A DNA stretch of 64,000 nucleotides from Chloroflexota bacterium (lineage in GTDB: Bacteria > Chloroflexota > UBA11872). Shown here one piece after another: positions 9,628 to 64,000 of this stretch. The stretch covers positions 36,115-100,114 of the forward strand of contig JAJDZD010000022.1 in assembly GCA_022824865.1 (NCBI GenBank), written 5' to 3'. The notes beneath the pieces are model-generated. The model did no database searches, was not told where the DNA came from, and saw only the letters and a program-made list of their open reading frames with translations. Both the position numbers and the translations under genes were made by a program. Numbering within the stretch: the stretch's first letter is position 1; every line of letters starts with the position of its first letter.

Positions 9628-10494
9628 ATGCCGCAGACGTACACCTTGCTCGACTTTATGCGCGACTATCCAGACGACGAAACCTGCCTCGACAAGATTC
9701 TTGAACTGCGCTACGGCACTGACCCGGTTTGCGAATCCTGCGAACGCGAGACGACCTATCACCGCATCAAGAAACGGCGCGGCTATGCCTGCCAATGGTG
9801 CGGGTCACACGTCTTTCCCTGCGCAGGGACACCGTTTGCGAAGTCACGAACACCGCTGACGAAGTGGTTCTATGCGATGTATCTCTTTACGACAACCCGG
9901 CATGGCGTACCTGCAAAGGAACTTGAACGGCAGCTAGGCGTGACCTACAAGACGGCTTGGCGCATGGGTCACATCATTCGAGACCTTATGTCGAATATCG
10001 ATATCGGGATGCTGGTTGGCGAAGTCGAAGTTGATGAATCCTACGTCGGCGGTCACCGCCCCGGCACAACCGGACGCGGCGCACAAGGCAAGACCATCGT
10101 GCTCGGTATGAAGCAACGCGGCGGGAACATGCGCGCGATGGTGATACCTGACGTAAAAGGCGCGACGATTGAACCGCTGATTCAACAACACGTCGCACGC
10201 GGTACAACCGTGCATACCGACGAATGGTGGGCATATCGGTACTTACACTGGCTCGGCTACGATCATCGCACGGTTCGGCACGGCAGAGGGCAGTACGTCA
10301 AAGACGGCAGTCACACGAATAGCATTGAAAACTTCTGGGCACGGCTGAAGCTATCGATTCGTGGGACGCACATTCATGTTTCCCGACAATACCTGCCGAA
10401 GTATCTGACCGAGTTTAGTTTTCGTTACAACTATCGGAACATGCCTGATCGGATGTTCGCGGTTTTGATGGCAACCTTGGCACAGCCTGTTTAA
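9628..10494 (+). CDS. IS1595-family (ISXO2-like) DDE transposase
   Basis: The N-terminal zinc ribbon (CESCERETTYHRI...CQWCG) plus an ISXO2-like DDE domain (VHTDEWWAYRY...) are typical of IS1595 transposases. Confidence 0.85.
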   Translation: MPQTYTLLDFMRDYPDDETCLDKILELRYGTDPVCESCERETTYHRIKKRRGYACQWCGSHVFPCAGTPFAKSRTPLTKWFYAMYLFTTTRHGVPAKELERQLGVTYKTAWRMGHIIRDLMSNIDIGMLVGEVEVDESYVGGHRPGTTGRGAQGKTIVLGMKQRGGNMRAMVIPDVKGATIEPLIQQHVARGTTVHTDEWWAYRYLHWLGYDHRTVRHGRGQYVKDGSHTNSIENFWARLKLSIRGTHIHVSRQYLPKYLTEFSFRYNYRNMPDRMFAVLMATLAQPV

Positions 10495-10684
10495 GCAAGG
10501 CGTCGAACAATGCTTTGTTACCGGGTTGCTTCGGTTTGGGTTTCGACTTTCTGCCTTCAGTTTTCTTCTTATTCATAAGACACCCCTATTTCTTGTGCAT
10601 AAAGCGAGTAGCCCAATTTGCACTTACATTCCGTTGCAGCATAATGCTATAATTAATCATATCATATCAATGGGAAGCTATAGC

Positions 10685-10807
10685 ATGAAAAACAATTCTC
10701 GCAAAACAGTAGAACCTCTCGACACTCAGTCATTTATGCTAATGATGGGCACATCTTTATTCGCAGTTACCTTTATGACTATTCTCGTTCTTTTTGCGGC
10801 AGGCTAA
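10685..10807 (+). CDS. small hydrophobic peptide (40 aa) in the AT-rich cargo, hypothetical
   Basis: MKNNSRKTVEPLDTQSFMLMMGTSLFAVTFMTILVLFAAG has a single TM. A sigma70-like TTGCAC-16-CATAAT sits about 50 nt upstream. GC content is about 40%. Confidence 0.2.
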   Translation: MKNNSRKTVEPLDTQSFMLMMGTSLFAVTFMTILVLFAAG

Positions 10808-10821
10808 GCAATTTACTTAAC

Positions 10822-11181
10822 TCACTTAGCCGTGTCTATGACAGACTTTACAACTGTCGATAGTATTCCTGTCAGCGCTGTAATCAGGGAAAGCATCGGC
10901 GCAACGATAAGAGCTATTAGTCCAAGTGCCTCTTGTCCGCGAGTCTTCGCAATCAGATAGCCGGTTACTACAGCACTAAATGCCGCGAAGAATAGCACCC
11001 AAACAAGAAAGGTAAATAGGACGAAAGCTTGGTTAAGATTCAATTTGCTTATTTCTGGGCCGATCATACTTCCCAGGGTAAGTGCGACAGTTACAGCTAC
11101 AAGTATCGCAATCCCAGTTGCGACAATTTTCCAAGGGATTTCTGGTAGTGGTTTAGGGTCGTCTTGAGTCTGATCGGCCAA
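10822..11181 (-). CDS. hypothetical integral membrane protein (~4 TM) in the AT-rich cargo
   Basis: 119 aa with hydrophobic helices separated by charged loops. AT-rich codon usage differs from the host. Confidence 0.4.
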   Translation of the reverse strand: MADQTQDDPKPLPEIPWKIVATGIAILVAVTVALTLGSMIGPEISKLNLNQAFVLFTFLVWVLFFAAFSAVVTGYLIAKTRGQEALGLIALIVAPMLSLITALTGILSTVVKSVIDTAK

Positions 11182-11432
11182 TTCGCAGCCTCCGTCGCTG
11201 TTTGTGCTTATACCGTACAGAATCCTAACACAACCGTTCTGGACACGGTACCGCCCGGCCAGCTAGGGTCACTGCGACTCGCCACAGTCACCCTACGCGC
11301 TAGCGCAATCGCGCGGTTTGGCGTCTGCGCTCCCCCGCGTATCGTCTAGCGCGTATTGACTTGTGGCGAGTCTGACACCTAGCCGCGCGACGGGGGAGCA
11401 CCTGTATCGCGCTTGCGATTCGGAGCGCCACT

Positions 11433-11750
11433 ATGAATCGCCGGACTGTTGCCGCTGCGGTCACCGCCCTGGCCCTTGCTGCCTGCGTCAAGGTCAGCGA
11501 CACGTCAACCGGGATCGAACACCTGCCGCCGGAGTTCAGCGTCGAAACCACGATCTATACGCAGGGCAGCGCGCGGTTGCCGCTGCCGTGCTTCGCGTCC
11601 CTGACGATTGACGCGGCAGGCGGGGAGACCATCATCAACTACGTCGAAATCACTGAACCTGCGTCCTACACGGTTCCGATCAGTGTGGACGGTCAGCTAG
11701 TCACCGAGTTCAATACGCAAGGGTGTCAGCCATGGACACTTGAACCGTAG
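11433..11750 (+). CDS. putative lipoprotein
   Basis: MNRRTVAAAVTALALAACVK is a signal peptide with a lipobox (LAAC). The protein is 105 aa. Confidence 0.45.
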   Translation: MNRRTVAAAVTALALAACVKVSDTSTGIEHLPPEFSVETTIYTQGSARLPLPCFASLTIDAAGGETIINYVEITEPASYTVPISVDGQLVTEFNTQGCQPWTLEP

Positions 11751-11817
11751 CGGTTCGGGCGGGATTGACGGCTGCGCAGGCGGCAAGATCAGCGGATTCT
11801 ATCGTACTTGTCGTCAG

Positions 11818-11845
11818 GGGATAATCGCGTTTCCAAAAAACTCTT
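11818..11845. repeat. right terminal inverted repeat of the IS1595-like element
   Basis: Reverse-complement match to 9541-9568. Confidence 0.55.
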
Positions 11846-12196
11846 GAGGCGCGGCGGGGTGCATTTTGGCGGGTCCGAGGCGCGCCGAGGATTGCGGCTG
11901 AAGACGACGAAACGGCGGGGCCACCGTGGAACGGCGCGTCCTGGCGAGGGGACGGAGGCGCGGTTCAGCGGGCGCGGCAGCGGACATTCGAGAACTCGGT
12001 TACGAAGACATCAGGCAGATTGTACACTGATGGCACACGACAGGCAAGCACCGCTCGTTTCGTGAACCGGCGAGGGATCACGAGAGCGCGGCGGGGGCTG
12101 GCCCGCACCGACACGCACATGCTCGGGTCGCCGTCCCGCTGTGAGGCGGGCAGACGATGAGCCGGGCTATTTCACCTGTTAGGGAGTGCCGCGCCT

Positions 12197-23839: not shown

Positions 23840-25585
23840 ATGCTGAACAAGGCGGCCGCCGAATTGCTGGAGGGCTTTGCCGACGCGCTGGAGATTCGGG
23901 GGGCCAATACGTTTCGGGTGCGGGCGTTTCGGAACGCGGCGCGGCGGGTGGACTCGCTGACCACGGACGTGGCGGAACTGGTCGAGAGCGGTGAGATCTC
24001 CAAGGTGCGCGGGATTGGCAAGGGCATCGCGGGGGTGCTGGGCGAGTTCGTAGAAAAGGGCCGCGTGGACGAGTACGAGGAGATGCGGGCGGAGATTCCC
24101 GACAGCGTCTTCGAGATGCTGCTGATTCCGGGGCTGGGTCCCAAGACGGCCGCGACGCTGTACAACAAGCACGGGATCGACAGCGTGGACGCGCTGGAGG
24201 AAGCGGCCCGCGAAGGGCGGCTGGCGGGTATCCGCACGATTGGCGCCAAGCGCCAAGCGCGGCTGTTGCGGGAACTGGGCCGGTTTCGAGAGCGGATTGC
24301 GCGGCGGCGGCTGGGCGACGTGCTGCCGATCGCGGAGCGGCTGATCGCGCACGTGGAGGCGGCGCCGGGGGTTCAGACCGTGCAGTACGCGGGCAGCCTG
24401 CGACGGGGTCGGGAGACGATCGGCGACCTGGACATCCTGGCGGCCGCCGACGAACCCGGACCGGTGATGGAGCACTTTGTGGCCGCCGACGATGTGGAAG
24501 AGGTCGTGGGTACCGGCGGGACCAAGACGGCAGTCCTGGTGGGCGGCGGGTTCCAGGTGGACTTGCTGGTGGTGGCGCCGGACGAGTTTGGGGCAGCGCT
24601 GGCGTATTTCACGGGATCGAAGGAACACAACATCGAGATCCGGGCGCGGGCGCTACAACGGGGGTTGTCGCTGAACGAGCGGGGGTTCCTGGACTCGGAA
24701 AGCGGGCAGCGACGTCCGGCGGCGACCGAGCAGGATGTCTATGCGGCGGTTGGACTGCCCTGGATTGACCCGGCGCTGCGCGAGAACCGGGGCGAGATCG
24801 AGGCGGCCGAGGCGGGGGCGCTGCCGGACCTGATCGAGCTTGGCGACATCAAGGGCGAGTTGCACGGGCACTCGCTGTGGAGCGACGGAGCGGGGTCAAT
24901 CGCCCAGATGGTCGATGCCGCCAGGCGGCGCGGATTGGCCTACTTTGCGGTGACCGACCACTCGGGCAGTCTGCCGGTGGCCAACGGCCTGAGTCAGGAG
25001 CGGCTGGCGGAGCAGGCTGAGGAGGTCGCGCGGGAGCGGGGAGCGTCGCAGGACGTACGCGTGCTGCACGGCAGCGAAGTGGAAATCCTGGCCGACGGCA
25101 GCCTGGACTTCAGCGACCAGATCCTGGCCGCGCTGGACGTGGTGGTGGCCTCGATTCACAGCAATTTCAACCAGCCGCCGGAGCAGATGACGGAACGGCT
25201 GATCGCGGCGATCGAGAACCCGCACGTGGACATCATCGGGCACCCAACCGGACGCATGTTGGGGCTGCGGGACGGCTATACGTTTGACGTGGAAGCGGTG
25301 CTGAAGGCTGCGGCCGCCACCGGCACCGCGCTGGAGATTAACGCGGCGCCGGAACGCCTGGATCTTGATGACACGACCGCCCGCCGGGCTGCTGAACTGG
25401 GCGTCCCAATCTCGATCAACAGCGACGCCCATCACCCCGCTAGCCTGGCCTATATGCGCTATGGGGTGCTGACGGCGCGTCGGGCCTGGCTGCGGGCCGA
25501 AGATGTGATCAACGCGCTGTTGCTGGACGACCTGCTGGCCTGGCTGGCGCAGCCAAAGCCGCGGCGTTGGAAGGCTGGGGCGTAG
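23840..25585 (+). CDS. polX: family X DNA polymerase (PolX) with a C-terminal PHP phosphoesterase domain
   Basis: N-terminal HhH (GIGKGIAG), a pol-beta-like nucleotidyltransferase core (GSLRRGRETIGDLDIL), and a PHP domain (HGHSLWSDG...VTDH...HPTGR). Confidence 0.85.
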   Translation: MLNKAAAELLEGFADALEIRGANTFRVRAFRNAARRVDSLTTDVAELVESGEISKVRGIGKGIAGVLGEFVEKGRVDEYEEMRAEIPDSVFEMLLIPGLGPKTAATLYNKHGIDSVDALEEAAREGRLAGIRTIGAKRQARLLRELGRFRERIARRRLGDVLPIAERLIAHVEAAPGVQTVQYAGSLRRGRETIGDLDILAAADEPGPVMEHFVAADDVEEVVGTGGTKTAVLVGGGFQVDLLVVAPDEFGAALAYFTGSKEHNIEIRARALQRGLSLNERGFLDSESGQRRPAATEQDVYAAVGLPWIDPALRENRGEIEAAEAGALPDLIELGDIKGELHGHSLWSDGAGSIAQMVDAARRRGLAYFAVTDHSGSLPVANGLSQERLAEQAEEVARERGASQDVRVLHGSEVEILADGSLDFSDQILAALDVVVASIHSNFNQPPEQMTERLIAAIENPHVDIIGHPTGRMLGLRDGYTFDVEAVLKAAAATGTALEINAAPERLDLDDTTARRAAELGVPISINSDAHHPASLAYMRYGVLTARRAWLRAEDVINALLLDDLLAWLAQPKPRRWKAGA

Positions 25586-25591
25586 CTTGCG

Positions 25592-26923
25592 ATGACTGCG
25601 ACAGTCGGGACGCCCACCACAGCTGCCGGCGGAATCGCCCAGAACCGAGTTAGGCATGAAGACCGGGCGGTGCATGACTGGTACCGGTTCGTCCTGTCAT
25701 TCCCGCCACACCTGGTCCAGACATACGTCGAGCGCTTTGGCCTGAATTCATCCAGCACGGTGCTCGATCCGTTCTGCGGAACCGGAACAACCCTGGTGGA
25801 GTGCAAGAAACTCGGCATCCCGAGCGTGGGACTCGAGCCGAACCCTATGGCGCATTTCGCGAGTGCGGTGAAGGTCAACTGGAATGTTGAACCCGCGGAA
25901 CTTGAGGCGTACGCGCGAGCAGTGGCCGGGATAGCCCGGAAAACCATCGAGGACGGGAGCGTCGATCAATGGGCGGGGCTACCGCTCCTGGCCGGAAACG
26001 GGGATTCACAGGTTCTGTTGCGAGCGCTCTCTCCTGAACAGACGCGGCTGTTGCTGAAAGACTCGATAAGTCCGTTGCCGCTGCACAAGACGCTGGTGCT
26101 GCTGGAGGCCATCGAGAGCCACGGCAACCGACATTTGCAGCGGTCTGGGCGGCTGGCGCTTGCCAACGCGCTGGTACGGCGCATCGGCAACTTGAAGTTC
26201 GGTCCCGAAGTCGGGGTCGGCCAGATCAAGGACGACGCTCCCGCGATCGAGTCCTGGACTGAGGGCATGCGGGCAATGGCCGATGACATACGTTCCGTTC
26301 AAGGACAGACCAGCGTTCCGGCCAGAGCACTCAAGGGGGACGCTCGGCAGGCCGATGAGGTCTTGGAGCCCCAGTCGATCGACGCCGTCATTACGTCGCC
26401 GCCATATCCCAACGAGAAGGACTACACGCGAACGACGCGACTTGAGTCCGTGATTCTCGGGCTGATCCGTGATCGCCCTGAACTGCGCGAACTCAAGCAA
26501 AGCCTGGTTCGGTCAAACACCCGGGGCGTTTACAAGGCCGATACGGACGATCAGGCGGTGGCCGACCACGCGGTGATTCGCAACATTGCCGAGACTATTG
26601 AGCAACGCCGGATCGAGTTGGGCAAGACGTCCGGCTTCGAACGCCTGTATCCGCGAGTCACGCAACTCTACTTTGGCGGCATGGCGCGGCACTTAGCCAG
26701 CCTGCGGTCGGTACTTCGGCCGGGCGCCAGGCTGGCGTATGTGGTCGGTGATCAGGCGTCGTACCTGCGAGTCATGATCCGCACGGGACAAATCCTTGCG
26801 GATCTGGCCCAATCGCTGGGCTATCGGGTTTCCGGCATCGACCTCTTCCGAACAAGGCCTTCGACCGTTACGGGCGATCAGCTTCGGGAGGAAGTCGTGT
26901 TGCTGGAATGGCCAGACAACTGA
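25592..26923 (+). CDS. DNA methyltransferase (N6-adenine / N4-cytosine type, motif I before motif IV)
   Basis: DPFCGTGTT (AdoMet motif I) near residue 60 and SPPY (motif IV) near residue 262. GC content is somewhat lower than in the neighbouring genes. Confidence 0.85.
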   Translation: MTATVGTPTTAAGGIAQNRVRHEDRAVHDWYRFVLSFPPHLVQTYVERFGLNSSSTVLDPFCGTGTTLVECKKLGIPSVGLEPNPMAHFASAVKVNWNVEPAELEAYARAVAGIARKTIEDGSVDQWAGLPLLAGNGDSQVLLRALSPEQTRLLLKDSISPLPLHKTLVLLEAIESHGNRHLQRSGRLALANALVRRIGNLKFGPEVGVGQIKDDAPAIESWTEGMRAMADDIRSVQGQTSVPARALKGDARQADEVLEPQSIDAVITSPPYPNEKDYTRTTRLESVILGLIRDRPELRELKQSLVRSNTRGVYKADTDDQAVADHAVIRNIAETIEQRRIELGKTSGFERLYPRVTQLYFGGMARHLASLRSVLRPGARLAYVVGDQASYLRVMIRTGQILADLAQSLGYRVSGIDLFRTRPSTVTGDQLREEVVLLEWPDN

Positions 26924-27091
26924 ACCCGAGAGGATCTGGAGATCCCTTCTAGCAATCGCTACGTCGCCATCATTGAGGCGATCTTCGGCTCCAAGCACGT
27001 TGCCGGTGATCGCGCGGTTAACTTCGAGCGTGAGGACATCATCGATGTCGCGGCAAGGCTTGGCATCGATCTGCCTAGAAATCTAGGCGAC

Positions 27092-27739
27092 TTGATCTAC
27101 AGCTTCCGCTACAGGATGAATCTTCCGCGCAGCATTCTGGATGCCGCGCCGAGCGGGGAAACCTGGATCATCAGACCCGCAGGACGGGGAAAGTATCGTT
27201 TCGTTCTGGTAAGCGACATTCCGCTGACGCCGAATCCAAACCTTGCCGTCACCAAGATTCCCGACTCCACGCCAGGGATCATTGCCAAGTACGCGTTCAG
27301 TGATGAACAGGCTTTGCTGGCCCGCGTTCGCTATAACAGGTTGGTCGACGTGTTTCTCGGCGTTGCCTGCTATTCGCTTCAGAATCACTTACGCACGACC
27401 GCGCCTGAGATGGGACAGGTCGAAACTGACGAGATCTACATCGGGGTGGACAAGCGGGGCGCTCACTATGCGGTTCCCGTCCAGGCCAAAGGCGGATCGG
27501 ACAGACTCAGCAGAGTCCAGATTGAGCAGGACTTCGCTGTATGTGAATCCAAGCTTCCTTCGCTGATCTGTCGGCCAGTTGGTGCGCAGTTCCTGGTGGA
27601 CGATGTGATTGCGCTCTTCGAACTCGAGCAGGTCGGCGACGACATTCGCATCGCCGCCGAGAAGCACTATCGACTGGTACCGCCGGATGCGGTGACCGAT
27701 GAGGATTTGGGCAGGTATCGACAGCGGCTCGCGGAATAA
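27092..27739 (+). CDS. putative type II restriction endonuclease (PD-(D/E)XK-like), possibly longer at the N-terminus
   Basis: TDEIYIGVD...VPVQAKGG resembles a PD...(D/E)xK core. The annotated start is TTG at 27092. The reading frame is open back to the MTase TGA (26921-26923) with protein-like sequence. Confidence 0.45.
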   Translation: MIYSFRYRMNLPRSILDAAPSGETWIIRPAGRGKYRFVLVSDIPLTPNPNLAVTKIPDSTPGIIAKYAFSDEQALLARVRYNRLVDVFLGVACYSLQNHLRTTAPEMGQVETDEIYIGVDKRGAHYAVPVQAKGGSDRLSRVQIEQDFAVCESKLPSLICRPVGAQFLVDDVIALFELEQVGDDIRIAAEKHYRLVPPDAVTDEDLGRYRQRLAE

Positions 27740-27790
27740 GACCGGACCGGCAGGCCGACACGGACTGCCCGTCATAGGAGGAGTGAACGT

Positions 27791-31629: not shown

Positions 31630-32040
31630 ATGGGCTGGCTTAGTCGCGAAATCAGCTTCCTGCTGGCCCGGCTCGTCACGAATTTCTTCGCGGTCCTGGC
31701 GGTGACGCAGCTGCTGGAAGACGGCATCGTGCTGCCTGAGCGCGGCAGCGACCGGTTCTGGCTGTCGATATTTGCCCTGGCGGTGGCGCTGGCCATTCTG
31801 AATTCCTATGTGCGCCCGGCGTTGGAGCTGGTTCTCAAACCGATCAGCTGTCTGTTGAAGTTGCTGACATTTGGGCTGTCGCACTTCGTGATCAGCGCGC
31901 TGGTGTTTTGGGGCGCGACGATGTTGGTTGACGACTTCACCATCGTGGACCTCGGTACCGCCCTGCTTGGGACCGTGATCGTGGCGGCGGTCGGCGCCTT
32001 CGGGTCGCTGGTGTTCGGCGGCCGCTCCACCGACGAGTGA
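31630..32040 (+). CDS. small 4-TM membrane protein (DUF360 / phage-holin-family-4-like)
   Basis: 136 aa with four hydrophobic helices. The stop overlaps the GTG of the downstream nuclease gene (GTGA). Confidence 0.5.
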   Translation: MGWLSREISFLLARLVTNFFAVLAVTQLLEDGIVLPERGSDRFWLSIFALAVALAILNSYVRPALELVLKPISCLLKLLTFGLSHFVISALVFWGATMLVDDFTIVDLGTALLGTVIVAAVGAFGSLVFGGRSTDE

Positions 32041-33836
32041 GCGAGGCCAGGGCCGCCGACGAAGCCGCGCCGGGCCGGCGCAGCGTGCTGGTCGAGGCGG
32101 CGGTAGCGACGCTGGAAGACGCGGGGCGTCCCATGACCCTGCAGCAACTGGCGCGCGCCGTGCTGCACGTGGAGGCCGGCGGCGCCCACATTGGCGCTCG
32201 GATTCTGGCGCCACTGCTGGAAGCCGACGATCGATTAGCAACGGTGGCCGCGGGACACTGGGGACTGGTGGCCTGGTCGCAGCGCTCCGATGCCATCGAT
32301 GACACCGAGTTCGTGGTATTCGATATCGAAACCAACGGCGGGCGCGGCGGGCGGCACCGGATCCTTGAAGTCGGAGCGTTGCGTCTGCGGGCGGGCCAAG
32401 AGATTTCACGCTACGCCTCGCTGGTACACGTGCCCGGACGGGTCTCGAAGTTCGTGACGCGCTACACGGGCATCACGGACGAGATGCTGACCGACGCGCC
32501 GCCCATCGAGACGGTGCTGGACGAATTCCGGGAATTTCAGACCGGCGGAGTGCTGGTGGCGCACAACCTACCCACGGACCTTGGCTATCTGAACCGCGAG
32601 GCCGTGTGGTCGCGACGCGCGCTCTTTCCCGGCGACGGCCTGGACACCATGGAGTTGAGCGCGGCGTTGATGCCCAATCTGCCGGGCACAGGGCTTGCCA
32701 CGGTGCTGGAGTCGGCCGAGTTAGCCGACACGCCCACGCACCGTGCGCTCGACGACGCTGGGGTCACCGCGAAGTTGCTCGAGTACCTGCTGGACCGCGC
32801 GGCTCAACGAGACGTCAGCACCCTCGGCGACCTTCGGCAACTCGCGGCGAGAGCCGGGCCCGAAGGCCGCCACCCGCGACGGGCTCGTCAACTGGCTCGC
32901 TGGGCCTCGCGCAATCTTCCGCCGTCGCCCGGCGTGTACATCTTTCGCGACTCGGCAAACCGGCCACTTTATATCGGCAAGTCCACGTCCTTGCAACGGC
33001 GCGTGCGCAGTCACTTCACGGACTCAGCGGGGTTCGTTCGGCGGCGTGACGGGATGCTGGAGCAGATCGACGCCATCGAGTGGGAGCCCACCGGCTCGGA
33101 ACTGCGCGCTCTGGTGCGCGAAGCCGAGCTGATCACCACGCTATCCCCGACGTATAACCGGAATCGGCGCTGGCGAATTGGCCGGCGGTTCGTTCGGGTC
33201 GGACCCGCCGAGTCCGCGGTGACGCATGCGGCCGCCGCGCCACGGGATGACGGAGCCGACTACCTGGGACCGTTTCCGACATCGCGGGACGCGAGGCTGG
33301 CAAGCGACGCGGCCCGGCGGATCTTCGAACTGCCCTCGCGGCGCAGCGTCGACAAGCAAGTTCCCGCGTGGCAGCGCGACGCGGCCGTTGCTTTCCTGGG
33401 CGTGGGCCGCGAGGCAGCTTTGCGAATCGTGGATGCCGCCGAGGCCGCGGAGGGCGGAGCGTTTGCCCGCCGCATTCGGCGCGCGCGCGTCCTGCGGCAC
33501 CCGCTGCGCGGTGGCCTCGGTGCCGCGCCCGTGCTGGCGATTTCACCGGGCGCCACGCCGGGAGATGCAGAGCTGGTTCGAATCGAGAACGGCGCTATTG
33601 CCGCCATCGAGTCTGTCGCCCGTCCGCGCCGGCCTGCGCTGCGCGCCGCCCTGCAACGCCTTGGGCGTGCGGACGCGCCGGGCGCCGACACGAGCGACCA
33701 CGAACGGCACATCGTGACCGCGTGGCTACATACGCATGCCGATGATCCGGACGCGATTGCGTGGGATCCCGACCTGTCGCGCGCATTCGTGGACCGCGTG
33801 TGGCGGCGCGTGCGTCAGGCAGCCAGCGCCGGCTGA
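32037..33836 (+). CDS. DnaQ-like DEDDh 3'-5' exonuclease fused to a GIY-YIG nuclease domain (Cho / Rv2191-like)
   Basis: FVVFDIETNG (Exo I) and HRALDDA (Exo III), then GVYIFRDSANRPLYIGKSTSLQRRVRSHF (GIY-YIG), followed by a long Arg/Ala-rich tail. Confidence 0.7.
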   Translation: MSEARAADEAAPGRRSVLVEAAVATLEDAGRPMTLQQLARAVLHVEAGGAHIGARILAPLLEADDRLATVAAGHWGLVAWSQRSDAIDDTEFVVFDIETNGGRGGRHRILEVGALRLRAGQEISRYASLVHVPGRVSKFVTRYTGITDEMLTDAPPIETVLDEFREFQTGGVLVAHNLPTDLGYLNREAVWSRRALFPGDGLDTMELSAALMPNLPGTGLATVLESAELADTPTHRALDDAGVTAKLLEYLLDRAAQRDVSTLGDLRQLAARAGPEGRHPRRARQLARWASRNLPPSPGVYIFRDSANRPLYIGKSTSLQRRVRSHFTDSAGFVRRRDGMLEQIDAIEWEPTGSELRALVREAELITTLSPTYNRNRRWRIGRRFVRVGPAESAVTHAAAAPRDDGADYLGPFPTSRDARLASDAARRIFELPSRRSVDKQVPAWQRDAAVAFLGVGREAALRIVDAAEAAEGGAFARRIRRARVLRHPLRGGLGAAPVLAISPGATPGDAELVRIENGAIAAIESVARPRRPALRAALQRLGRADAPGADTSDHERHIVTAWLHTHADDPDAIAWDPDLSRAFVDRVWRRVRQAASAG

Positions 33837-33901
33837 GGCGTTACAACTCTCCGCAGGAACCTGCCGACCGACGCCGCGTGCTCGCCTGGCGTGTGGATAT
33901 T

Positions 33902-33920
33902 GGAGGCGACGCTGGGAGTC
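33902..33920. repeat. direct repeat (19 nt, 1 mismatch) of the tRNA-Cys 3' end; att-like boundary of a ~2-kb islet
   Basis: ggaggcgacgctgggagtc at 33902-33920 versus ggaggcgacgctgggaatc at 35918-35936 (tRNA-Cys 3' end plus 3 flanking nt). Confidence 0.5.
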
Positions 33921-34344
33921 AGGCCGGGGGTGTGTCGAGGCAGATGCCGTACGCCGGTTCGCTTCGAGTGGACGCGACCTTGCCGGCCTGCACGTTCGAC
34001 TCGATCTGTGCCGATCCGCGTCAAAGTCTGTACAGCGAACTGCACGGGCGTGGCACCAAGGCAGGGGTGCTGAGCCGCCAAATCGCCGGGCGCGCGGCGT
34101 GAGTTGGCCACACCGAGCGCTCCGGCGGCGTGGGCCGGCCGTCCGGATGGCCAGGGCGTCGGTCTGCCGCCGGAGCCGCTGCCCCTGGTCACGTAGCATG
34201 CCCGCCTGCAAGCCCGGCAACTCGCGCCGGGGAATCCAGCTGAGCGGCCCGGGCGAGCCGATCGCCATCTGGGTTGGGTCCTAAACCGCGTCTGCCCGAT
34301 GGCCGCCTCCGTAGGCAGGCGGTTCTGGAGGCCTTGGAACAGGG

Positions 34345-34390
34345 CGCTGGGGTCTGTGGGCGTGGCGGAATGTGGGGCCCGAGCGGGGCT
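34345..34390. repeat. G-rich ~44-bp direct repeat, copy A
   Basis: gcgctggggtctgtgggcgtggcggaatgtggggcccgagcggggc. About 90% identical to copy B at 35177-35220. Confidence 0.6.
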
Positions 34391-34651
34391 GACAACTCGA
34401 CTGTGACGCCAGACGTGCTGCTGCGGCTGCTTCGTGAGCGTCAGGGAATCCAGTACCAGCGATGCAAGGTCGAGGCTCAGCGACGCGAAGCTCAACGCGC
34501 GTGGCGTGACACCCAGCGCCAGCGGCAAGCCATCGAGCGCCAGCGACGGCCGGATCTCTGCGCAGGCCGGCTGCAAGGTCCCAACGTTGCTGGCGCTTTA
34601 ATCACCGCAGACTCCATGGCGGTGTCGTAGACGACCGTAGAGCAGACGGCG

Positions 34652-35017
34652 TCAGCCGTCGACGTGCTGGCGAAGTTCGAAGCCGTTTCCCTCGGTGTCC
34701 CGCACGAGTGCCAGCCGGACGGGTATGCCGGGGCGAGCCTCCCGCACGCCAAGTATCTCTCCCCCGCCCGCCTCGACCTCTTGGATAGCGGCATCCAGAT
34801 CGTCGACGCGAAGGTTCAGTCCTGCGTGGGGCATCATGCTCTCGTCCATGCCCTGACTCCAGCTGTGGAGCGCCAACGTCAGACCCTCGCAACTCAGAGT
34901 GCTCCAGTGGGGCGACTCTTGCTCCACCCTCAGACCGATGACGTCGCGGTAGAAGCCCAGAGCCCGGTCCATCTCCTTTATGTAGAGAATGACCATCGGA
35001 TCGGTGGCGTTCACCAC
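34652..35017 (-). CDS. VOC-family protein (glyoxalase / bleomycin-resistance fold)
   Basis: 121 aa, carrying HW...L...W......H.GL....DDLD...E.GG.I. Confidence 0.7.
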   Translation of the reverse strand: MVNATDPMVILYIKEMDRALGFYRDVIGLRVEQESPHWSTLSCEGLTLALHSWSQGMDESMMPHAGLNLRVDDLDAAIQEVEAGGGEILGVREARPGIPVRLALVRDTEGNGFELRQHVDG

Positions 35018-35176
35018 TCCCTCCCTGCAGCGTGCAGGCTCAGACGTTGAAGCCTGAACTTCCCATACTGTGAGCCTACAGGCTCACCGAGCAGCCCGAA
35101 CGAGAACGTGGTTGCACTCTCCCTCAGCTTGGCGCCGTGAAACTCCAACCGTACACGGCGGTCAAAACGGAGCGTG

Positions 35177-35220
35177 GCGCGGGTCTGTGGGCGTGGCGGA
35201 ACGTGGGGGCGGAGCGGGGC
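35177..35220. repeat. G-rich ~44-bp direct repeat, copy B
   Basis: gcgcgggtctgtgggcgtggcggaacgtgggggcggagcggggc. Confidence 0.6.
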
Positions 35221-35919
35221 GGCTAGCCGCCGCTTCTCTTCCGCCGCCCCTACACCGACCGCCCCTTCCAGCGCACCTGGCCGATGGTCTTGTCGGTTCA
35301 CGTCCAGAGCACCGGCGGCCTGATGCGGCGTCAGGCCGCTCTTGCGGCAGCAAGCTCAGCGTCTGCTTCGCCAATCAATCTGAAGTACGCCGTAAAGGCT
35401 CCTCGTGCAGCGTCGAACAGCCCGGCGTCACCAGACTTCAAGGCGGATGCAATGGAGAGTTTCGCGCCCAGCGCGGCTTCAATTGCCTCGGAATAGAGTT
35501 GGTGAATTCGTAGCGACGGCGGTCCGCGAGAACCTCGCAGCCGTAGGACAACCTGGTCTCCATTGACTTCTGGCTGGGGCGGATGAGTCTTCGCAGACGC
35601 GGTCAATCCCGTGGTGGCGAATCAGCTGGCCTGGAAGGACAAACGGAAGGCGGTCACCTCGCCCACCATCTCGCCGCAGTTGCCAGCGACGGCGGCGATT
35701 TCCACGACCGGGAAGTCGCAGGTCCTGCAGGCGTACGGGAGCTGTCGGTCGGGGAGGAATTGGCGGTGCCATTCAGCGGCGTTCGGACTACTTCGAATGC
35801 TGACGTCGGGTCGTCCCCGGCACCAGTTGGTCGCCGCATTGGCGGGCAGGGCGGAAAAAGCACCGGCACGGCAAGGCAAAACCGGCTTTTGGCTACCAGG
35901 ACTGACCCATGTCCTCGGG

Positions 35920-35990
35920 AGGCGACGCTGGGAATCGAACCCAGGATAGGGGTTTTGCAGACCCCCGCCTTACCACTTGGCTACGTCGCC
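35920..35990 (-). tRNA. tRNA-Cys (GCA)
   Basis: The minus-strand sequence GGCGACGTAGCCAAGTGGTAAGGCGGGGGTCTGCAAAACCCCTATCCTGGGTTCGATTCCCAGCGTCGCC folds as a cloverleaf with a 7-bp acceptor stem. The anticodon loop is CUGCAAA, giving GCA. CCA is not encoded. Confidence 0.85.
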
Positions 35991-63855: not shown

Positions 63856-64000
63856 ATGAAACGTCTGGTTCTAGCGATCGTTGGTGTCGTCTCACTCCTT
63901 GGAATCACCGCCGCGGCGGCGTTGGCTGATTGGCCGACCACCTGCGTTGAACTCAACGACCTCATTGAAGCCGGACGCGGCAACGATCAAAACGTTGGTA
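63856..64000 (+). CDS. secreted hypothetical protein (5' partial, runs off the window)
   Basis: MKRLVLAIVGVVSLLGITAAAALA is a signal peptide. GGAAAGG lies upstream. Confidence 0.4.
   Translation, partial: MKRLVLAIVGVVSLLGITAAAALADWPTTCVELNDLIEAGRGNDQNVG

Follow-up and report, generated by a model that had tools for sequence, protein, structure and literature searches.

The question raised by this locus is how about 2 kb of DNA with a single intact gene came to separate the gene for a DnaQ-like/GIY-YIG protein from a tRNA-Cys gene, with a copy of the tRNA 3' end at its far boundary. The locus is located in a 64,000-nt stretch of a Chloroflexota bacterium genome (assembly GCA_022824865.1, contig JAJDZD010000022.1, positions 36,115 to 100,114 of the forward strand), hereafter the window, in whose coordinates positions are given unless another locus is named; related loci are designated by L numbers. 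A first-pass annotation of the same DNA had proposed an islet integrated at tRNA-Cys. Based on the analysis described below, the 2,016-bp interval is regarded, with a probability of about 0.8, as a decayed remnant of a small site-specific integrative element, or genomic islet, in the 3' end of tRNA-Cys(GCA). The features that delimit this interval, including the two attachment (att) copies, are as follows.

35918-35990, minus strand: tRNA-Cys(GCA), as identified by ARAGORN
35918-35936, proximal att copy: the tRNA-Cys 3' end on the minus strand, plus-strand 19-mer GGAGGCGACGCTGGGAATC
33902-33920, minus strand: distal att copy GGAGGCGACGCTGGGAGTC, the displaced native tRNA-Cys 3' end, with one mismatch against the proximal copy
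35861-35899, minus strand: two terminator-like hairpins in islet DNA, just 3' of tRNA-Cys

The plus-strand sequence GGAGGCGACGCTGGGAATC is the reverse complement of the tRNA-Cys 3' end and, when read in the tRNA sense, consists of 9 nt of the T arm, the 7-nt acceptor strand, the discriminator U, and the CC of the CCA position; the split is 17 nt of tRNA body plus 2, not 16 nt of tRNA plus 3 flanking nt as annotated at first. With three or fewer mismatches allowed, the 19-mer matched only twice in the 64 kb, at a start-to-start spacing of 2,016 bp, against 0.03 matches expected from shuffled sequences, none of which gave two, and the direct repeat with one mismatch seen by the first-pass annotation is thus genuine. 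By exact search the 16-nt core was found once per locus, at the tRNA, in 20 related loci, indicating that the 19-mer is not a dispersed repeat; the distal copy of L002 was missed by this exact search, the mismatch being inside the core. The open reading frame (ORF) for DnaQ-GIY-YIG stops at 33836 and the distal 19-mer begins 65 nt later, in agreement with the gap of about 65 nt noted before. The Rfam tRNA model matches 35920-35990 with 69.5 bits, and tRNA-Cys remains complete despite the insert at its 3' side.

The same site was then compared among relatives. The DnaQ-GIY-YIG protein (RNase_T and GIY-YIG domains; "DEDD exonuclease domain-containing protein" in NCBIfam) was used for a search with one genome per species, by which 37 syntenic loci were obtained, all in Chloroflexota metagenome-assembled genomes. 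The tRNA-Cys gene follows the DnaQ-GIY-YIG gene at a distance of 27-254 nt in 34 of the 37 (27-82 nt in the 17 closest), and 34 of the 37 are empty; the remaining three are two loci without tRNA-Cys at the site and L002, which carries a 3.2-kb insert. Together with the loci described below, 12 loci are occupied at this site, the window included. When the window was aligned with the empty loci L001, L018, and L003 (90-94% identical), blastn ended at 33920 and restarted at 35918, with the 19-mer shared by both sides, and therefore the 2,016 bp represent a precise insertion. The proposal of site-specific integration at a tRNA gene is supported by this comparison, in which the closest relatives are empty at tRNA-Cys, rather than having the same content without the repeat.

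At the syntenic site of L010 (complete chromosome OZ240251.1, ~11830-11840), tRNA-Cys and ~230 nt downstream are deleted (compare L007 11866-12130), with the deletion junction inside the att core, …GATGCTGGAGGC joined to CCGCGCTGGAGGG…, between two GGAGG words; this genome must keep tRNA-Cys elsewhere.

The ends of the insertion carry further information on the event. The tRNA-Cys 3' terminus is CCC followed by GAGGACATGGG in the window, as in every islet carrying module M5 (the right arm, see below), and CCA at most empty sites, with a genome-encoded CCA at 17 empty sites. The distal copy of the window, in the tRNA sense, still has the native A of CCA and the clade-native spacer attached. The identity between attP, the site of the element, and attB, that of the chromosome, would then be 16 nt, one mismatch, and 2 nt. 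The junction arrangement, with the insert 3' of the tRNA and the CCA displaced, supports a model in which attP of the element gave tRNA-Cys a new 3' end. The loss of the encoded A should be harmless, because tRNA-Arg of the window likewise has no encoded CCA.

In the proposed sequence of events, attP would have carried a copy of the last 16-19 nt of tRNA-Cys, and a site-specific recombinase, most probably a tyrosine integrase, would have joined it to the chromosomal tRNA-Cys gene. At the junction at 35918 the tRNA would have been reconstituted, with the extreme 3' end and the terminator hairpins coming from the element, while at 33902 the native 3' end would have been displaced together with CCA and the native spacer. 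The recombinase would then have been lost. Deletions between short internal repeats are whittling the islet down, and its spread would be mediated mainly by homologous-recombination tracts together with flanking DNA. The integrase-bearing parent element is one that we infer and did not see; its attP junction is predicted to be CATGTCCTCG-GGAGGCGACGCTGGGAGTC-AGGCCGGGGG, and the att word expected in the flanks of any partner integrase is GGAGGCGACGCTGGGA.

An origin without site-specific integration, the tRNA end having been duplicated by illegitimate or microhomology insertion or by tandem duplication and divergence, is highly improbable. Rearrangements outside att do happen at this locus, as shown by a duplicated dnaQ 3' end in L041, and no recombinase gene was ever found in the islet, but what integrase-mediated insertion normally leaves behind is just this, a reconstituted tRNA, a displaced native end, and a duplication of exactly the 16-19 nt at the tRNA 3' end (PMC2704930). 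Such a duplication is not expected from end joining, and the islet interior shows no similarity to the adjacent chromosomal DNA.

What then does the integrated DNA contain? The parts of the window islet are listed below, with the strand where one applies.

33921-34073: module M1, non-coding left arm, in every fully sampled variant, 94-97% identity between copies
34074-34582: module M2, non-coding, holding G-rich repeat 1
34345-34389, plus strand: G-rich direct repeat copy 1, in M2
34583-35231: module M3, holding the VOC gene and G-rich repeat 2
34652-35017, minus strand: VOC ORF, Pfam Glyoxalase, E 1.5e-9
35177-35231, plus strand: G-rich direct repeat copy 2, ending in the palindrome GGCGGCTAGCCGCC (35218-35231)
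35232-35256, plus strand: remnant of segment X, 25 nt, tail of the terminator hairpin in L043/L052
35257-35917: module M5, right arm beside the tRNA, decayed coding DNA with zero intact genes
35331-35511, minus strand: P0077-like C-terminal remnant, ~60 codons, tblastn 66% identity, E 7e-21
35438-35563, minus strand: 41-codon ORF, of which the first ~18 codons (35510-35563) are the start of a Peptidase_S24 ORF
35501-35511: deletion scar, single copy of an 11-bp repeat, GGTGAATTCGT in the window and GGTGAGTTCGT in L043

A six-frame Pfam scan of 33900-35920 detected the VOC domain alone and no integrase, in agreement with the first-pass annotation, by which no intact integrase was seen, and the VOC gene is the sole intact gene of the window islet. 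Substitution counts by codon position among 12 copies gave no coding signature in M1, M2, or M5, in accord with the "Arg-rich pseudo-ORFs" reported before, except that some of these are fragments of two genes, the P0077-like gene and the S24 gene.

The VOC gene was annotated at 34652-35017 and is confirmed by Pfam as a member of the glyoxalase/bleomycin-resistance superfamily (PF00903, 38.7 bits against a cut-off of 20.6, profile positions 5-121 of 121), with its start probably at the second GVG codon, 35014, giving 34652-35014 and 120 aa; this start is favoured because 120 aa is the length of all database homologues. No specific VOC subfamily or NCBIfam equivalog was matched, the scores for glyoxalase I (22.6 against 120) and the FosA type (16.3 against 180) being below the cut-offs. 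Only 13 of its 363 nt are variable, compared with about 10-14 per 100 nt in the neighbouring modules, and the VOC gene therefore looks, by sequence comparison, like the only part of the islet that is maintained. The protein is one of 19 sequences in a tight cluster, whose representative is 97% identical to the window protein. The next homologues, 60-64% identical, are located in ordinary, unrelated chromosomal contexts with no G-rich repeat.

By fetching the contigs of the VOC-cluster members, ten more occupied loci were obtained within L041-L052, representing nine distinct sequences, since L045 duplicates L044 over the stretch that it covers. With L002, eleven occupied loci (ten distinct sequences) are known beyond the window, in other assemblies and all at the dnaQ/tRNA-Cys site. 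The islets are deletion variants of differing content, spanning 1,062-4,408 bp in the 7 copies measured, and include two segments that are not in the window.

Module M4: 1.2 kb, AAC(3)-like Antibiotic_NAT gene and DUF5678-like gene
Segment X: 397 nt, ending in a strong terminator hairpin (z -4.1 in L043)
L043: M1-M2-M3-M4-X-M5 with an extra 802 bp within M5; 4,408 bp
L052: right-hand part as in L043, left end cut off by the contig; span not measurable
L002 and L044: M1-M2-M3-M4-M5; about 3.2 kb
Window: M1-M2-M3-M5; 2,016 bp
L042: M1-M3, M4 stub, 225 nt; 1,125 bp
L041: M1-M3, then a second, partial dnaQ 3' end and native spacer; 1,062 bp
L046, L047, and L048: further deletions

The loci L041 and L042, both lacking M2, have one common junction, GGTGCTGA joined to AACGTTGC. 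The VOC and AAC(3)-like genes occupy opposite strands (minus and plus, respectively), and repeat 2 is upstream of VOC. Precomputed Pfam assignments for called genes within 10 kb of all occupied loci included no integrase or recombinase. Of the extra 1.2 kb of L002, translated in six frames, the two ORFs scanned (AAC(3)-like and DUF5678-like) do not encode recombinases, and among the islet proteins neither PADLOC nor NCBIfam detected anything relevant.

Two observations on individual variants are added here. Upstream of the DUF5678-like gene, segment X of L043 (reverse complement, 11860-12010) contains a series of short direct repeats resembling iterons (…CTGAGACGATCTGAGACGCACGGAGACGCACGGAGAC… and …AGACAACCGGAAACAGCCTTAGACAGC…), possibly an operator or binding-site array, which the window lacks. 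In L041, a 1.9-kb metagenome scaffold, two dnaQ-GIY-YIG 3' ends of ~200 nt are present at 126-324 and 1222-1420 (locus coordinates), ~93% identical by eye, of which one continues the full gene and the other lies between repeat 2 and the native spacer with tRNA; the joint of the duplicate shows microhomology of 6-8 nt only, and the duplicated end is either a real product of illegitimate recombination or an assembly chimera.

The existence of longer versions agrees with the earlier description of a decayed or miniature island, as they reveal two segments deleted from the window copy. For the first, window 35232-35256 (GCTTCTCTTCCGCCGCCCCTACACC) matches the last nucleotides of X in L043, and the end of repeat 2 just before 35232 (GAGCGGGGCGGCTAGCCGCC) resembles the X hairpin (GAAGCGGGGGCCGCCAGCCCCC), and therefore M4 and X were lost by recombination between these two elements, a deletion of ~1.6 kb that removed the AAC(3)-like gene, the DUF5678-like gene, and the promoter/terminator segment. 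The second is shown by the 802 bp within M5 of L043 and L052, which are bounded by copies of the 11-bp repeat that is single in the window. This deletion, common to the window, L002, and L044, took away most of an S24 pseudogene and most of a gene for a protein of 238 aa, P0077, which is intact in L052. The S24 pseudogene is represented in the 802 bp by most of an 86-codon ORF that, together with its upstream part (L052 reconstruction), matches Peptidase_S24 (LexA/CI/UmuD-like) with 25.7 bits against a cut-off of 23.3. It has an in-frame stop even in the longest variant and no detectable helix-turn-helix (HTH) domain; its motif GKSME...VKRR is located at what we take to be the usual positions of the catalytic Ser and Lys of S24 peptidases. 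The 802-bp segment of L043 was also considered as an inserted miniature inverted-repeat transposable element (MITE), and this was rejected, since the segment is ancestral coding DNA (P0077, S24) that was lost from the window.

P0077 (L052 5153-5869) has a ~50-aa two-cysteine module, WPTTC[VI][ED]LNDIVExHLGNxxNVGIYQxTFG...ACQNDHRxDVRxVFGWA, which recurs in more than 230 Chloroflexota proteins (E down to about 1e-50), with one or two copies in each, fused to ankyrin repeats, cytochrome c, RCC1, DUF1524/Excalibur nuclease, or PD40/DPPIV propeller domains. The module matched no Pfam family and may be an undescribed extracellular domain of these bacteria. A further copy starts at the extreme 3' end of the window (63856-63999, plus strand).

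The two G-rich direct repeats of ~44 bp described in the first-pass annotation as flanking the VOC gene are indeed significant: 34350-34389 and 35181-35220 align over 40 nt with 93% identity, extendable to ~47 nt, against 0.00 matches expected by chance. They raise another possibility, that the repeats are cassette sites, attC-like or new, at which the islet grew stepwise by the insertion of the VOC and AAC(3)-like modules. The repeats bracket the VOC gene, the AAC(3)/DUF5678 module starts directly after repeat 2, and the variants part from one another directly after the palindrome of repeat 2, three different sequences following it across the genomes. These differences, however, are accounted for by one deletion, between repeat 2 and the X hairpin, and one rearrangement in L041. 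Moreover, the repeats fold no better than shuffled sequences on either strand (z -0.8 to +0.65) and match no Rfam family, tRNA being the only Rfam match in the islet at E≤1; the genes are oppositely oriented, no integron integrase is present, and the repeat was not found outside the islet in the window, in all 52 loci, or anywhere in IMG/VR. Stepwise insertion at cassette sites is thus extremely improbable, and the view of the G-rich repeats as recombination sites of a recognised type is not supported. Their single demonstrated role is as substrate for the M4-X deletion, and we regard them as leftovers of an internal duplication.

How the remnant reached different genomes was examined by comparing islet and flank identities, which for three pairs are as follows.

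Window and L042: islet 96.5%, far flanks 85-87%, near flanks 75-76%
Window and L052: islet 94-96%, far flanks 81%, near flanks 74%
Window and L044, a close relative: M1-M3 91.5%, M5 98.6%, far flanks 94-95%, near flanks 94-97%

In trees of both flanks, the window pairs with the empty L018, and L002 with the empty L004. The identities and the flank trees altogether show, at the level of sequence comparison, a history of the islet decoupled from that of its hosts, and the difference between M1-M3 and M5 of L044 is read as a recombination breakpoint within the islet. Vertical inheritance with repeated precise loss was rejected, the divergence of the islet being decoupled from that of the flanks in both directions.

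The flanks themselves point to the vehicle of transfer. In L002 and L041-L044, the occupied loci compared besides the window, the distal att is preceded by a 70-nt spacer of the kind found natively at L007, L013, and L010, sites that are themselves empty or deleted. The last 750 nt of dnaQ in L043 are 94-99% like L007, while the rest of L043 is 90-97% like L002, and the right junction of L041 carries the second, partial dnaQ 3' end. Such tracts are interpreted as signatures of homologous, occasionally illegitimate, recombination moving the islet together with its flanks, and we infer that the islet passes among related Chloroflexota mainly in homologous-recombination tracts and not by its own excision and integration. 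The distal att is 19/19 identical in six other loci (L041-L045 and L047), differs at one more position in L002, and is truncated in L046 through a deletion of 10 nt. In L048 and L049 no distal att is recognisable and the alignment to the window starts at the same position as that of L046, so that both probably share its truncation, which argues that the att site is not generally under constraint.

Several observations weigh against parts of the explanation preferred here. The G+C content of the islet is 0.658, compared with a window mean of 0.663 (standard deviation 0.031), and composition gives no foreign signal. The two islet ends, the G-rich repeat, and the predicted attP junction, used as exact patterns, gave 0 matches in two scans of JGI metagenomes and in IMG/VR, phage and plasmid records likewise contained no blastn match to the islet, no attP junction or circular form was found in IMG/VR or the fetched loci, and a search with P0077 in IMG/VR gave no relative. 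Because the parent element was never found, the type of recombinase is deduced from the anatomy of the junctions. The VOC substitutions are distributed 6/4/3 by codon position, which by itself is no proof of purifying selection. Lastly, the window is an exception to the pattern of spread: its spacer is clade-native and its similarity to other islets starts exactly at att, an arrangement that homologous recombination alone accounts for poorly, since it requires either a crossover within ~19-30 nt or a second site-specific event with an integrase in trans.

The latter option leads to another reading, in which the islet is an active non-autonomous element of the type of cis-mobilizable elements (CIMEs), moved in trans or in cis by the integrase of a larger element targeting tRNA-Cys. 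The window retains both att copies nearly complete, and six other loci have the distal copy without any mismatch; the window junction lies exactly at att, next to a clade-native spacer, while all other compared copies have the L007-type spacer. In addition, the window shares the 802-bp deletion with L002 and L044, so that the ancestral islet was seemingly already without integrase, and the shared deletion and the exact junction together point to a second site-specific event after integrase loss. A deletion between 11-bp repeats, however, can arise repeatedly and independently, no partner integrase was found in addition to the missing attP junction and circular form, and the distal att is truncated in L046 and probably L048/L049. 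The right junctions of L041 and L042 are not att junctions, having native spacer and, in L041, the duplicated dnaQ end, and the donor-type flank tracts show transfer by homologous recombination. We consider this reading unlikely. A broader version, in which the islet is a still-mobile, integrase-less hitch-hiker re-inserted in trans at empty tRNA-Cys sites, as the exact att junction of the window hints, with the G-rich and hairpin repeats as hot spots for gain and loss of small cargo (VOC, AAC(3)-like, DUF5678-like, and a secreted protein), is quite unlikely. The preferred reading remains that of a decayed remnant of a site-specific element, now carried along mainly by homologous recombination.

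Other features of the window are described briefly. An IS1595-family transposase gene (9628-10494, plus strand; DDE_Tnp_IS1595, E 7e-46, with zinc ribbon) is associated with the low-G+C stretch 10001-12000 (0.49-0.59 compared with 0.66), the sole strongly AT-shifted part of the window, and is probably a separate recent insertion. A 2.2-kb segment at 25573-27779 is absent in L003, L004, L005, L007, and L010, and an N6/N4 DNA-methylase domain is represented in its ORF at 25592-26923 (plus strand) by a fragment only; at a roughly corresponding position in L043-L048, a PolX-like gene lies beside the neighbouring adh_short gene. Variation at this locus thus occurs at a second place as well, some 6 kb away from the islet. 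Next to the DnaQ-GIY-YIG gene, whose start it overlaps by 4 nt, a conserved membrane protein of 136 aa, "Phage_holin_4_2," is encoded at 31630-32040 (plus strand). The gene is located at the same position in all occupied loci with annotated tables reaching there, and is therefore a core gene despite its phage-derived Pfam name.

Among the known systems, the closest are genomic islets, defined as genomic islands of less than 10 kb at tRNA genes (Hacker & Kaper; reviewed in PMC2704930). The criteria for genomic islands include insertion at the tRNA 3' end, a near-perfect direct repeat of 16-20 bp, an integrase, and atypical composition (PMC2704930). The present islet agrees with genomic islets in its absence from close relatives, its location at a tRNA 3' end, the tRNA-derived direct repeat, the accessory cargo, and its size of ~2 kb, but differs from them in having no functional or cryptic integrase in 12 copies and the same composition as the chromosome. 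CIMEs, as defined in ICEberg 2.0 (PMC6323972), are similar in the loss of integration and transfer genes with both att repeats kept in the window. They are different in that the site shows neither a cognate integrative and conjugative element (ICE) or integrative and mobilizable element (IME) nor accretion, some lineages have a degraded att, and the spread documented is through recombination of the flanks; the islet may thus work like a CIME, but cannot be filed as one.

The longer variants resemble prophage or ICE remnants in having an ORF for an S24-peptidase catalytic domain ~350 nt from the tRNA and reading away from it, but this ORF is a pseudogene without HTH, of which ~18 codons are left in the window, and no other phage or conjugation genes are present. 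Small, promoter-less-looking accessory genes (VOC, acetyltransferase) between repeats recall integron cassettes and clusters of attC sites lacking integron integrases (CALIN), in contrast to which the islet has no attC-type structure and no intI, its genes are opposed, and its boundary repeat is tRNA-derived. An insertion sequence or MITE was rejected, as no inverted repeat joins the islet ends and the 19-nt repeat, being the tRNA end, differs from a generic target-site duplication.

An association of the host with sponges is probable, as we read it from isolate names (COS, RHO, and SB bins) and from how abundant ankyrin proteins are. For the annotation of these uncultured Chloroflexota, the islet marks tRNA-Cys as an integration hot spot and accounts for 2 kb of non-coding DNA crowded with spurious ORFs, and the VOC gene, as well as the AAC(3)-like gene of the longer variants, should be classed as accessory and horizontally shared, not core. 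The mechanism is textbook and none of it is new; what is documented, in an uncultured lineage, is a deletion series together with recombination-driven sharing across species. The islet thus represents the well-documented end stage of an integrative element, in which the att scars and one useful gene have outlived the recombination machinery, and the remnant endures and is still transferred between species through homologous recombination.

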